64,000 nucleotides of DNA from Vampirovibrionales bacterium (GCA_039794365.1 JBDIVN010000006.1:71390-135389), one strand, 5' to 3'. Positions 22,439 to 25,113 are shown, counted from the first letter of the stretch. Translations and numbers: made by a program. Notes: generated from the letters alone by a model not told the origin.

Positions 22439-23662
22439 TTACGCAACCGCGCCCATCTGAAGCATCGGGACTGCTGTGACAGCAGCGCCTGCGCCTCCGC
22501 CTGCACTGGCCATGGCCATTCCGCCGAAGGGATTGTTGCCGCCACCGCCAAATTGATTCCCGTTGTCGCCAGCGCCAGCCCCGTTGCCGGCGATTTCAAC
22601 CCGCCCACGGCCCGGCTGTTCGTTGCCGCTGGCACCGGCCTCCGCCTCGCGGAACATCTCGTCGATTTCCCGCTGGCTCTGGCTCTGCCGCTCGTTGAAG
22701 GCCCGGTTCCGATCAGCCGTGCGACCGCCCTGGTTCCGGATATCGCGCTCGGCCCCCCGGTAATCGCCGGACTCATCGCCCTGGCGCAGCCGATCCACGG
22801 CTTCCTGGCCCGAACGGGTGCTTTCGCGCATATGCTTCACGGCCTCGTCCGCCTGTTTGCCAATCTTTTCAGCCAGTTTTTCATGCCGCTGGCCCGTTCT
22901 CTTCTGGAGTTGGCCAAGCCGTTCCATGTTCTGGCCGGACTGCTCCAGCGCCTGGCCGGCGGTCTTGATGCCCTGCCCGGCCAGCTTGATGGCCTGGCCT
23001 GCCGCTTCCATCGCCGCCCCGGCTGCCGCCGTAAACGGGTTGGACTGCAACGCCTTGCCGACGGCAATCATCGAGGTTCCGGTCTGGATCATGGTCTGAC
23101 CGGCCTGCTGCATACCCTGCCCGGTCTGCTGAAGGGACTGACCCTTCTGCTCTGTCTTTTCAGCGCTTTTCAAAACCTGATCGGCTTGGTCCCCCAGCCT
23201 TTGAGACGTTCTGACCTGCTGTCCCACCTGGCTCACCTGGCCCATCTGCCCGCCCAATTGCTGGCTGATGGTCCCCGCTGCGGAACGGATGCCGTCCTTC
23301 TGACTGGTGCCCTGAACTTCGTCAGCCTCCGTACGGACCCTGAGCATATCCTGACGCAGCTGATCCGCCGGGTTTTCCTGTACTCCCCGACCTTTGCCAG
23401 CCCCGCCGCCTTGGGCACCCTGCTGGCCCTGACCTTGCTGGCCCGCGTTGGCAACCTGCATACCCCCCGGTACCGTGGACCCGAAAGCCCCCTGGTTGAG
23501 ATCGACATTGCCGCCAAGCTGGCCGCCCGCCATTGCCAGTAGCTGAAGGGCTTCCTCGCGCCTGGGGTCCCGTCGTCCGCCACCGGCTCCGGCCAGCATC
23601 TGATCCAGTTGCGCTTGTGCGCCGGGATCGGAATTGAATCCGTTAATTCTTAAATCCACCAT
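22439..23662 (-). CDS. Gln/Gly/Ala-rich low-complexity repeat protein (paralog 1)
   Basis: 407 aa with no Cys; G-Q-x repeats; conserved SNPFTAAAG block; C-terminus …PMLQMGAVA; perfect hairpin CAGGGTTTCCG-N-CCGGAAACCCTG just 3' of the gene. Confidence 0.6.
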   Translation of the reverse strand: MVDLRINGFNSDPGAQAQLDQMLAGAGGGRRDPRREEALQLLAMAGGQLGGNVDLNQGAFGSTVPGGMQVANAGQQGQGQQGAQGGGAGKGRGVQENPADQLRQDMLRVRTEADEVQGTSQKDGIRSAAGTISQQLGGQMGQVSQVGQQVRTSQRLGDQADQVLKSAEKTEQKGQSLQQTGQGMQQAGQTMIQTGTSMIAVGKALQSNPFTAAAGAAMEAAGQAIKLAGQGIKTAGQALEQSGQNMERLGQLQKRTGQRHEKLAEKIGKQADEAVKHMRESTRSGQEAVDRLRQGDESGDYRGAERDIRNQGGRTADRNRAFNERQSQSQREIDEMFREAEAGASGNEQPGRGRVEIAGNGAGAGDNGNQFGGGGNNPFGGMAMASAGGGAGAAVTAVPMLQMGAVA

Positions 23663-23898
23663 GCCTGTTACCCCCTGGAAAAATTTTGAAACGTTCCATC
23701 AGCGCCGCGATTCCCACTCGCCCGATGCGCCGGGTCGTTTGATGTCGGTTTCCATGCCTGTTCCCACTATTTGTATTTGTATAAAAACAAGTTATTGGAT
23801 TTTTGTGCCAAAAAATTTTTCAGGGTCTCCGGGAAATTGCCGGAAACCCTGAACTCGCACTATTTTTACCCGCCTTCTGGCAGATACCTGCCGACCCG

Positions 23899-25113
23899 TT
23901 ATGCGACCGCACTCGGCTGGATCATGGGGATGCCCGCCGGGGCCGCTCCCAGTCCGCCACCCGCCGGGGCTGCCGCCACCGCAGGGGCCTCGCCGCCAAA
24001 CGGATTGTTGCCGCCGCCGGCAAAAGGATTGCCGCCGTTGTTCTCGGAACCGTTGGCCGCGACCACCGTTTCGCGACTTTGCTCCGTGCGGTTGTCCGTA
24101 TCGGTCTTGTTGTTGTCCGCCCTGTCCTTGTCATCCTTCTGCTGGTTTTTCTGGTTCTGCTGGTTCCTGGCCAGGCGGGTGTCGCGGCGCTCCTCGCGGC
24201 GACGTCTGTCCTTGCCCTGAAGCCCTTCCGTATCCTGCCCGGCACGAATCTGGTCCAGGACGTCGTTGGCTTCGCGTGACGTGTCGTTGGCCTTGTCCAG
24301 TTGCTTATTGGCCTTTTCCTCGGTTTTCTGGGCCAGTTTGACCTGTTTGTCGCCTTTCTTTTCGGTTGCTTTGCCTTTCTGCTCGGTCATCTGGCCGGTT
24401 TTTTCCTGAGCCTGGCCCGATTTTTCCAAGGCCGCCCCGGCGGTTTTCACAGCCGTTCCCTTGGCAATCATGGCCTTGCCCGCCGCCGCGGTGAACGGGT
24501 TGGAGAGCAACGCCTGCCCGGCCTGGATCAATCCCTGACCAACCTGCTGCATCGTCTGGCCCGCCTTCTGCATTCCCTGGCCGGACTTCTGCAGGCCCTT
24601 GCCTTTCTGTTGGGTGCCCTTGCCCACCTGAATCTGCTGCTTGCCCTGGCGATCCATTTTTTCCGCCTGGCGAATCTGCTTGCCAATCTGGTTGACGCCT
24701 TCCAGGGTGCCGGTTACGGACTGCGCCGTACCACGGGCCGCATTACGACCGTTTTCCTGGTTCGGTTCAGCCAGTTGCCCGGCCAGTTCGTTGCCTTCGG
24801 CCTGAACTTCCTGTAGCGACCGGCGGACGTTCTCCACCCGGTCTTCCTTGCGGTTCTGCTGGTTGCCCTTGGCGCCGCCGGCCTTGGCGCCACCGCCGAA
24901 ACCGCTGCCCACTTCCACCCCTTCCGGGTTCTGGGAACCGGTCAGCTTGGCCATCATATCCTGGTTCTGCTGAAGCTGCTGATCCCCCTCGGTCAGCTGC
25001 TTGAGAATGTCGGCATTCCGTCCCTGGTCCTGCCCTGGTTGACCGGCCTGGCCCAAGCCTTGCTGGCCCTGAGCCTGTTGTTGATCCGGCTTGAATCCAA
25101 TCGTCAGTGACAT
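23899..25113 (-). CDS. Gln/Gly/Lys-rich low-complexity repeat protein (paralog 2)
   Basis: 404 aa, paralogous to 22439..23662 (shared N-terminal M.L.IGF.…, SNPFTAAAG block, GGNNPFGG, C-terminal …MIQPSAVA); same hairpin 3' of the gene. Confidence 0.6.
   Translation of the reverse strand: MSLTIGFKPDQQQAQGQQGLGQAGQPGQDQGRNADILKQLTEGDQQLQQNQDMMAKLTGSQNPEGVEVGSGFGGGAKAGGAKGNQQNRKEDRVENVRRSLQEVQAEGNELAGQLAEPNQENGRNAARGTAQSVTGTLEGVNQIGKQIRQAEKMDRQGKQQIQVGKGTQQKGKGLQKSGQGMQKAGQTMQQVGQGLIQAGQALLSNPFTAAAGKAMIAKGTAVKTAGAALEKSGQAQEKTGQMTEQKGKATEKKGDKQVKLAQKTEEKANKQLDKANDTSREANDVLDQIRAGQDTEGLQGKDRRRREERRDTRLARNQQNQKNQQKDDKDRADNNKTDTDNRTEQSRETVVAANGSENNGGNPFAGGGNNPFGGEAPAVAAAPAGGGLGAAPAGIPMIQPSAVA

Follow-up and report, generated by a model that had tools for sequence, protein, structure and literature searches.

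Long antiparallel coiled-coil hairpins that work through their tip are a well-known protein design. In the signalling domain of chemoreceptors (MCP; PF00015) this design takes the form of a very long hairpin of antiparallel heptad helices, in which A, G, Q and E abound and the tip is the most conserved and functional part, and in model bacteria it is expressed under sigma-28, the factor which there drives late flagellar and chemotaxis genes. Long helical hairpins with a tip that meets the membrane occur in ClyA, AhlB, SmhB and MakA, in the TcA channel and in the YopB/YopD translocators of type III secretion systems (T3SS), while the WXG100 proteins (ESAT-6/CFP-10) are helix-turn-helix tandem paralogues that form a four-helix bundle, have no Sec signal and carry a signal in their C-terminal tail. 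Here we describe two adjacent genes, A and B, in a 64,000-nucleotide stretch of DNA from a Vampirovibrionales bacterium (GCA_039794365.1 JBDIVN010000006.1:71390-135389; the whole stretch is called the window below), whose products are predicted to be rods of this general design. What Pfam, NCBIfam, PHROGs and the literature searched do not describe is the family to which they belong, its tip motif, its distribution and a DNA element that accompanies it. The Melainabacteria/Vampirovibrionia are the closest non-photosynthetic relatives of the cyanobacteria and count among their members gut commensals and a practically important predator of algae; almost no lineage-specific biology of the Melainabacteria has been tested so far, and the locus offers as handles a protein module with a near-invariant tip, a cross-genus DNA element which would define a small regulon, and recurring tandem pairs.

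Comparison with the MCP signalling domain shows the same design logic, that domain provides the best structural matches of A and B, and large relatives of A and B carry sigma-28 promoters; unlike it, however, A and B have no sequence or profile match, no transmembrane sensor and no HAMP domain, their tip is unrelated and their flanks are Q/G-rich and disordered. With the α-pore-forming toxins and translocators they share the long helical hairpin and weak structural matches, and with the T3SS translocators also the side-by-side paralogous or partner genes and, presumably in the case of A and B, Sec-independent export, but their tips are not hydrophobic enough for a bilayer (Kyte-Doolittle (KD) hydropathy 0.2–0.8) and they lack head or tongue domains, nearby secretion genes and significant similarity. 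The WXG100 proteins likewise combine a hairpin bearing a conserved turn motif with tandem paralogy and the absence of a Sec signal. They are, however, only ~100 amino acids (aa) long with a W-x-G turn, whereas A and B have 407 and 404 aa, an S-N-P-F-T turn and long disordered arms, with no EccC/EssC-type (FtsK/SpoIIIE) ATPase adjacent; the DUF87 ATPase of the window, at 44.9 kb, is a soluble protein of 399 aa. Phage tape-measure proteins (PF10145) resemble the family in their Gly/Ala-periodic helical segments, and the V. chlorellavorus orthologue of A and B (P0005; proteins and loci from public data are given P and L numbers) reaches E 0.0016 against this model, although at 18.8 bits against a cut-off of 33.2; A and B themselves have no Pfam or PHROG match and a chromosomal housekeeping context, and phage and plasmid collections searched by tblastn with the hairpin yielded no homologue. 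Related glycine-heptad hairpins stand ahead of the SpoIID, CHAP, M23 and lysozyme domains of conjugative cell-wall hydrolases. Finally, ElaB/YqjD/DUF883, LEA, apolipoprotein and phasin proteins are similarly helical, rich in Ala, Lys and Gln and low in complexity, but A and B match none of their profiles at threshold and are built on a 7-residue repeat with a glycine core rather than on 11-mers, and their C-termini are G/A/N-rich and predicted to be disordered, not transmembrane-like as in ElaB/DUF883.

Genes A and B and their predicted hairpin

Gene B (23899..25113, minus strand) is an open reading frame (ORF) for 404 aa and gene A (22439..23662, minus strand) encodes 407 aa; the public-data protein P0003 is identical to the product of A. 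The two products have the same architecture and are 35% identical over 335 columns (BLASTP, E 4e-40), which, together with the exact coordinates and the common strand, confirms an earlier note on this DNA that had recognized a tandem pair of paralogues of about 400 aa at 22439-25113. A and B are separately transcribed paralogues of an undescribed, mainly melainabacterial family. Scans of Pfam, NCBIfam and PHROGs gave no meaningful match for either protein, and no description of the family was found in the literature searched. Residue counts bear out the Q/G-rich, Cys-free composition noted earlier (G 14.6%, Q 14.6% and A 12.1% in B; G 17.9%, Q 13.8% and A 13.3% in A), and Trp is also missing from both. 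B consists of a Q/G-rich disordered N-terminal arm (residues 1–90), a helical hairpin and a G/N/A-rich disordered C-terminal arm that ends in ...PSAVA, the corresponding end of A being ...MGAVA. An SNPFTAAAG block, a GGNNPFGG block and the G/A-rich ...AVA tail are present in both proteins as had been reported, while the common N-terminal motif M.L.I.GF is looser than claimed, the two paralogues beginning MSLTIGF and MVDLRINGF with some resemblance between them.

Each gene is followed by a hairpin in the DNA. That of B (23819..23853, minus strand) has 14 pairs (eight of them G-C, in a scan that permits G-T), a 7-nt loop and then the T run AAAAATTTTTT, and that of A (22386..22411, minus strand) forms 11 perfect pairs around a GAAA loop and is followed by a weak T tract. 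The arm CAGGGTTTCCG(G) is common to both, with exact copies nowhere else in the 64 kb. The hairpins are thus near-identical rather than the identical perfect pair first described, since pairs, loops and T tracts differ; the hairpin of B has the features of an intrinsic terminator and that of A has them in part, its T tract being weak. The presence of an arm-sharing hairpin 3' of each gene does uphold the proposal that the terminator lay inside the duplicated unit, which also took in an upstream block of ~45 nt. A G-rich ribosome-binding site, read directly from the sequence, was duplicated as well and precedes both A and B, and as each gene thereby has its own upstream element (see below), ribosome-binding site and hairpin, each is a self-contained transcription unit.

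In B a glycine occupies each seventh residue from 157 to 199 and from 212 to 254, followed by alanine from 261 to 282, and a 21-nt repeat period in the DNA matches this protein heptad. The GQ quasi-repeats of the earlier note therefore have a genuine periodicity behind them, but one that is a strict heptad with Gly and not a loose quasi-repeat. AlphaFold2 (AF2), run with 15–16 homologues, predicts the same fold for both proteins, an antiparallel two-helix hairpin of ~170 residues. In B (model m643e6f6cfd64), where the heptad register and the 21-nt period agree with the prediction, the domain comprises residues 120–290 (24244..24756, minus strand) with helices at 120–202 and 209–290, and in A (model m08f5e19b8fdd) it comprises residues 126–295 (22778..23287, minus strand) with helices at 126–205 and 212–295. 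The confidence score of the models (pLDDT) is above 90 over ~120 residues, which in B lie at ~140–270, and disorder is predicted in both proteins for residues 1–90 and the last ~60. The label 'low-complexity' is consequently misplaced for the core, which is a confidently predicted, highly ordered helical hairpin; as modelled, A and B are rods with floppy Q/G-rich ends in which the hairpin is the sole folded part. Gly or Ala at one core position per heptad is a hallmark of very tight antiparallel 'Alacoil' packing.

The turn of the hairpin is formed by SNPFT of the block LLSNPFTAAxGAA. In B the codons for S204-N-P-F-T208 lie at 24490..24504 (minus strand) inside the conserved block ALLSNPFTAAAGKAMIA, and in A those for S207-N-P-F-T211 lie at 23030..23044 (minus strand) inside ALQSNPFTAAAGAAMEA. 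The P and F of the tip are invariant in the 15–16 aligned homologues, a pattern which indicates that the tip is the part of the hairpin under the strongest selection, and its NPF is more simply seen as a helix-capping turn than as a mimic of the ligands of eukaryotic EH domains. Both proteins show the traits that define a family of glycine-heptad hairpins with an SNPFTAA tip, namely two long helices, Gly or Ala once per seven residues and a joint of the form [LM][LM]SNPFTAAxGAA.

Distribution of the family and of its tip module

Word-indexed homologue searches returned two and five matches and were swamped by low-complexity words, so that the full scan with a hidden Markov model alone was informative. 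Applied to 1.84 billion representative proteins, it gave 146 matches at E <=1e-3 and six at E <=1e-30, including A itself. A scan of a genome collection placed the relatives mainly in Melainabacteria (Gastranaerophilales and unclassified members), with outlying relatives in single metagenome-assembled genomes (MAGs) of Vulcanimicrobiota and of a Spirulinaceae cyanobacterium and in MAGs with no label beyond 'bacterium'; the genomes that bear orthologues span 33–63% GC. The tip [LM][LM]SNPFTAAxGAA is near-invariant in ~50 protein clusters of 46 to 2817 aa, mostly from Melainabacteria. Tandem pairs recur independently in three other lineages, at L006 (730 + 520 aa), L007 (866 + 1025 aa) and L145 (759 + 557 aa). 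Those of L006 and L145 adjoin an SNF2 helicase, as do P0002 and P0005 (V. chlorellavorus), while P0001 and P0006 are flanked by a two-component system on one side and trpE on the other. Around A and B are genes for a thioesterase, a phosphoribosyltransferase-domain protein, glycosyltransferases, an MFS transporter and RecO, and an attempt to read a role from gene neighbourhood fails, the neighbours of A and B being housekeeping genes and those of the family varying by lineage save for the SNF2 helicase.

Genes for RNase T, a CCA-adding enzyme/PolyA_pol and an RNA methyltransferase are present near the right end of the window (55221..63255), and the same three gene types occur at 1..2261 of L004, 8–10 kb upstream of P0002. 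This match suggests that an ancestral family locus beside an SNF2 helicase may lie just past the window, and that A and B may be additional copies.

The conservation of the termini claimed by the earlier note holds in part. The N-termini of the family share a loose M-x-[ILV]-x-[IV]-[GN], whereas the exact ...AVA is kept outside the pair only in P0002. A hydrophobic-plus-Ala C-terminus is a general trait, with 19 of the 51 tip-bearing proteins ending in Ala, although the nominal p of 4e-8 for this ending is overstated because the sequences are related. Cys accounts for 0.27% of the family's residues, compared with 0.86% for a control family. Among PDB sequences a profile search found a designed coiled coil only, and structure searches gave generic matches at 7–15% identity to chemoreceptor hairpins, AhlB, SmhB, MakA, Tc-toxin and colicin hairpins, SMC arms and designed coiled coils, with phage tape-measure and DNA-injection proteins among the matches in BFVD.

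The tip-bearing module is also part of proteins of other kinds. In Gastranaerophilales it is found, often twice, within proteins of 1400–2800 aa. A protein of ~1670 aa from the Spirulinaceae MAG (L011 532-5532) has an LLSNPFTAA tip in a strongly hydrophobic region together with two eCIS_core (DUF4157) metalloprotease-like domains and C-terminal pentapeptide repeats (Pfam), the tip of P0105 is likewise embedded in strongly hydrophobic flanks, and in P0103 the module forms the C-terminal tail of a TrbL/VirB6 protein. In a class of ~280 aa a classical Sec signal peptide stands before a hairpin whose tip has the variant form AIPWTAAIG. By eye, glycine-heptad hairpins with another tip, SSGxGAIxGVP, are joined to multi-pass VirB6-like membrane proteins, of which the one scanned (P0018) had no Pfam match, and hairpins of this type are also found ahead of SpoIID/CHAP or M23/lysozyme hydrolases; whether these hairpins are homologous to A and B is uncertain, as the score may be partly compositional. 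The hairpin region is covered by a Pfam model in none of these fusion or secreted proteins. A further protein of ~1670 aa (L014 8345-13393, from a MAG labelled 'uncultured bacterium') also has the LLSNPFTAA tip within a strongly hydrophobic stretch, and by eye it is similar to that of L011.

A shared upstream element and the sigma-28 promoters of distant relatives

The element GCACAAAA-N12-TGTTTTTATGCAA stands ahead of A, of B, of the gene for a small protein D, of a 121-aa gene and of a 213-aa ORF. Its general form is GCAC(A)AAAA-N12-TGTTTTTAT(G/A)CAA, often extended by (A/G)CACA(A/G)GG. At B (25273..25309, minus strand; 160 nt before the ATG) it reads TTTATGCAC-AAAA...TGTGTTTATGCAA and contains the direct repeat TTTATGCA-N20-TTTATGCA, and at A (23777..23813, minus strand; 115 nt before the ATG) it reads TTGGCACAAAA-N12-TGTTTTTATACAA. 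The element of D (46576..46612, plus strand) is an exact match to the search pattern TTTATGCA-N20-TTTATGCA and so fits the shared pattern as exactly as that of B. Five exact copies of TTTATGCA are present in the window, where ~1 is expected, and all lie upstream of B, D or the 121-aa gene, two of them 28 nt apart at B and likewise two 28 nt apart at D. With up to three mismatches allowed (<=3), the paired pattern finds sites only ahead of A, B and D, against ~0.2 expected by chance in the window. The relaxed pattern GCA[CA]xAAA-N12-TGTTTTTAT[GA]C adds two variants, TCACAAAAAA-N12-GGTTTTTATGCAA at 48037..48068 (minus strand) for the 121-aa gene (47596..47961) and GCAACAAAA-N12-ATGTTTTCATGC at 30969..30998 (minus strand) for the 213-aa ORF.

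The same element occurs upstream of the V. chlorellavorus orthologue (L018 9914-9945, 55 nt before the ATG) and of P0002 (L004 9851-9880), and direct reading of the sequence located it ahead of P0001 in L001 and of the first gene of L145 (~7340), the copies in L001 lying at ~9893-9925 and 19811-19843. It also precedes proteins with neither a Pfam match nor a signal peptide, among them one of 875 aa in L001 and others in L033/L074, L082, L037 and L030. A metagenome-wide scan returned chiefly chance matches in AT-rich contigs and ~10 plausible sites. This distribution indicates that A and B belong to a gene set marked by one element conserved across genera. An ordinary sigma-70 promoter (TTGATT-17-TATATT) precedes the window's tRNA-Leu gene, so the element is not the housekeeping promoter. 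Other assignments were tried against published consensus sequences and rejected, the spacing being wrong for a sigma-54 site and neither a sigma-28 nor a standard sigma-70 site giving a fit. In L030 (~positions 1-2450, minus strand, of a metagenome contig of 45% GC) the element is followed by the gene of a 198-aa protein that begins MNQISKKEFKL.., downstream of which are two Flp-type pilin genes (..GQSLTEYGLILALIAV..).

Large tip-bearing proteins of Gastranaerophilales are preceded, 29–40 nt before their start, by the perfect sigma-28 promoter TAAAGTTT-N12-GCCGATA. This was found upstream of tip proteins of ~1700 aa at four loci representing two orthologous groups (L008 5697-5723, L009 8084-8110, L012 6780-6806 and L016 8094-8120), and a sigma-28 promoter is also present in L007 (2856-2882, minus strand) ahead of a 136-aa protein that starts MTEINRLGLNTSS. 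Melainabacteria of this order and of Vampirovibrionales have flagella (PMC4451040), and L023 encodes FliI.

The gene for small protein D (46688..46900, plus strand) encodes 70 aa from an internal ATG, beginning MGLEIGQKIQ and running through a Q/G-rich stretch to NSIFS, with no hairpin. It is one of five small genes at 46170..48560 (103, 70, 144, 121 and 101 aa) whose products have M-S-L-S-G-V-like starts and the endings ..AGAIFA, ..AGAVFGT, ..LSVFA, ..GHVFY and ..NSIFS, loosely of the type ...GA[IV]F[AG]; none of the five rose above noise in Pfam, NCBIfam or PHROGs. The earlier note had taken these proteins for members of the same family as A and B, which the comparisons contradict (hhalign probability 0.05; BLASTP of D against B, E 0.93). 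Its observation that D mimics the N-terminus of A and B stands as far as MGLEIGQK resembles MSLTIGFK and the upstream element matches, although D is not a homologue, and the link it drew to the cluster at large has similar termini in its favour, as well as the element for D and the 121-aa gene, while the likeness concerns a few terminal residues only. On the strength of the element, D would be co-regulated with A and B. On this evidence the proposed link appears right in substance, as co-regulation and similar termini, and wrong in form, as the proteins are not one family.

The 213-aa ORF (30226..30867, minus strand) lies downstream of rplT, and its product begins MSISAVNFGTY, MSISAVNFGTYAPAG, has two hydrophobic hairpin-like segments (..AVAIGLAMTPATLPLALVLGAAIGG..) and no Pfam match; by eye its architecture is akin to that of the 875-aa protein of L001 and of the proteins in L033/L074. 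Close to the small-gene cluster, 44912..46111 (plus strand) encodes the soluble 399-aa DUF87 (HerA/FtsK-like) ATPase, which has a coiled coil at its C-terminus. More than 100 clusters share 58–78% identity with it, and as those that are named bear the labels Vampirovibrionales, Melainabacteria or Cyanobacteria, the window is assigned to Vampirovibrionales. The ATPase gene is often found near succinate dehydrogenase genes, and in L023 a gene for a Q/N/G-rich protein of 141 aa that contains a tip-like VSCPYAGMAAAAPG comes after it. We considered this ATPase as a secretion ATPase of the small proteins and rejected it, since it is soluble and highly conserved while its neighbours vary between genomes.

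Possible roles of A and B and other features of the window

It is quite possible, and is the reading towards which we tentatively lean, that A and B are exported or associated with the envelope without a Sec signal and act through the tip. They would leave the cytoplasm or dock at the envelope by means of their conserved unstructured termini, the N-terminus of the type M-S-[IL]-x-[IV]-[GN] and the hydrophobic-plus-Ala C-terminus serving as export signals, with the flagellar type III export apparatus as the leading candidate route. This route would be the most economical in view of the relatives with signal peptides, a VirB6 tail or membrane tips, of the absence of Cys from A and B and their disordered, conserved termini, and of the sigma-28 promoters of relatives. 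The absence of a Sec signal and of Cys and the AF2-predicted disorder of the N-terminus are export-like traits of A and B themselves. The hairpin would act as a rigid spacer that presents the tip, which might insert into a membrane or dock onto a partner, and A and B may pair into a four-helix bundle, the recurrence of tandem pairs suggesting heterodimers. Of the roles listed in the earlier note, that of a secreted substrate is thus possible and is the direction favoured.

Several observations weigh against export. The argument for it rests entirely on inference, and the motif seen at the N-terminus is a short one that was drawn up post hoc. A sigma-28 promoter of the form TAAA(GTTT)-N11-12-GCCGATAA is absent before A and B and throughout the window, and in L007, which has both promoter types, the hairpin genes use the one that is not sigma-28, with a third conserved upstream block, AAAAGGCAATTTTT-N14-CTTTATATAA; the link to motility, which the promoters make direct for distant relatives, on these two grounds extends to A and B by inference only. 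Genes for secretion, flagella or pili were not found near A and B, the neighbours being housekeeping genes, and the structure searches yielded generic hairpins only. Over 20 residues either side of the tip the mean KD hydropathy of A and B is a mild 0.2–0.8, against values of up to 1.9–2.0 for the same flanks in some relatives, so membrane insertion of the A and B tips is not predicted. Homology beyond the tip-bearing proteins may be partly compositional, and in the cell-wall-hydrolase fusions the hairpin and the hydrolase are on opposite sides of a transmembrane segment, which would make the hairpin there cytoplasmic. In a bolder form of the export reading, which we regard as a long shot, the products of A, B, D, the 121-aa gene and the 213-aa ORF and their melainabacterial likes would be substrates of a dedicated, unrecognized export or assembly pathway. 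The private element GCACAAAA-N12-TGTTTTTATGCAA, short terminal signals and the hairpin with the SNPFTAA tip would then be its signature, the hairpin providing both the signature module and an extracellular or envelope-spanning rod, possibly for contact with prey or host.

A cytoplasmic scaffold or stress protein of the LEA, phasin, apolipoprotein or ElaB type, whose helices would coat a granule, a droplet, a membrane face or ribosomes while the arms self-associate or condense, would suit the disordered Q/G/N-rich arms, the long amphipathic helical region, the missing signal peptide and the housekeeping neighbours. One source, by automatic annotation, moreover calls the V. chlorellavorus orthologue P0005 'ElaB/YqjD/DUF883 family', and P0005 gives a sub-threshold match to Apolipoprotein PF01442 (E 0.003, 17.8 bits against a cut-off of 90). 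However, A and B match no phasin, LEA, apolipoprotein or DUF883 model (Pfam at E up to 1; NCBIfam) and lack the C-terminal membrane anchor of the ElaB type, and their strict 7-mer with a core Gly points to a closed two-helix coiled coil and not to the 11-mer amphipathic surface helix typical of lipid-coating proteins. Such a role would also leave unexplained the conservation of the tip, its presence in signal-peptide, VirB6-tail and toxin-like proteins and the sigma-28 promoters of relatives, and we consider it a serious if unlikely alternative; the phasin, apolipoprotein or LEA role suggested in the earlier note found nothing for A and B in profile scans, relatives giving only sub-threshold compositional matches. 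That A and B are instead a membrane-active translocon or pore-forming pair directed at prey or host, after the manner of T3SS translocators or of ClyA/AhlB, with the tip entering the target membrane and the hairpins assembling through their glycine faces, seems distinctly unlikely. The window does come from Vampirovibrionales, an order including an algal predator for which use of a type IV secretion system has been proposed (PMC4451040). Tandem pairs of ~400–750 aa recur, AhlB, SmhB, MakA, Tc-toxin channels, colicin hairpins and phage tape-measure and DNA-injection proteins are among the best structural matches, and the tip also turns up, between hydrophobic flanks, in toxin-like eCIS_core proteins and in the tail of a VirB6 protein. 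Yet these structural matches are non-significant and generic (Foldseek against the PDB gave none below 1e-3, with identities of 9–15%), the A and B tips, which contain Lys or Glu, are too weakly hydrophobic to span a bilayer, the tblastn searches of phages and plasmids had no match, and gut Gastranaerophilales and soil lineages without known predation have members of the family as well.

A chemoreceptor-like cytoplasmic signalling or array component, expressed with motility genes and binding a kinase, an adaptor or a motor part through its tip, would account for the combination of a variable heptad stalk with an invariant tip and for the sigma-28 promoters of relatives, but is in our view very unlikely: the tip sequence is unrelated, no match to MCPsignal (PF00015), no sensor, no HAMP domain and no methylation-site pattern was detected, the structure matches are weak (E 2.8e-3 at 7–14% identity), and the Q/G-rich disordered arms with their conserved termini would go unexplained. 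It is scarcely conceivable that A and B are compositional artefacts, unexpressed long ORFs held open by chance in GC-rich repetitive DNA, which the earlier note had allowed for and to which the low-complexity composition and the long ORFs overlapping A and B on the opposite strand might lend some credence. Their G+C at third codon positions (GC3), 0.72 in A and 0.75 in B, is on par with that of bona fide genes of the window and typical of coding frames here, the paralogues keep frame, heptad register and tip at 35% identity, and the upstream element, ribosome-binding site and terminator are conserved and the fold prediction is confident. Syntenic orthologues across genomes of such different GC content, the widespread tip motif and the recurrent tandem pairs effectively rule an artefact out. 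If A and B are exported rods at the cell surface, they would bear on the contact of these bacteria with prey or host; if they are cytoplasmic, they would still show cleanly how an antiparallel coiled coil is built on a glycine core in nature.

Elsewhere in the window, 48650..50338 (plus strand) encodes a 562-aa protein with no Pfam, NCBIfam or PHROG match, whose C-terminus by eye shows an H-x6-D ... H arrangement (..YHGQGLAVD..PGMHAD..) reminiscent of M15-type cell-wall peptidases. The region 50000..52700 has a GC content of 0.47, against a window average of ~0.59, and none of the three ORFs scanned in it (293, 131 and 138 aa) gave a Pfam match; its composition suggests that it is possibly foreign DNA. 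Just upstream of the A/B region, 18003..20942 (plus strand) encodes a 979-aa STAND-type NTPase (AAA_16/nSTAND1) with C-terminal TPR repeats.

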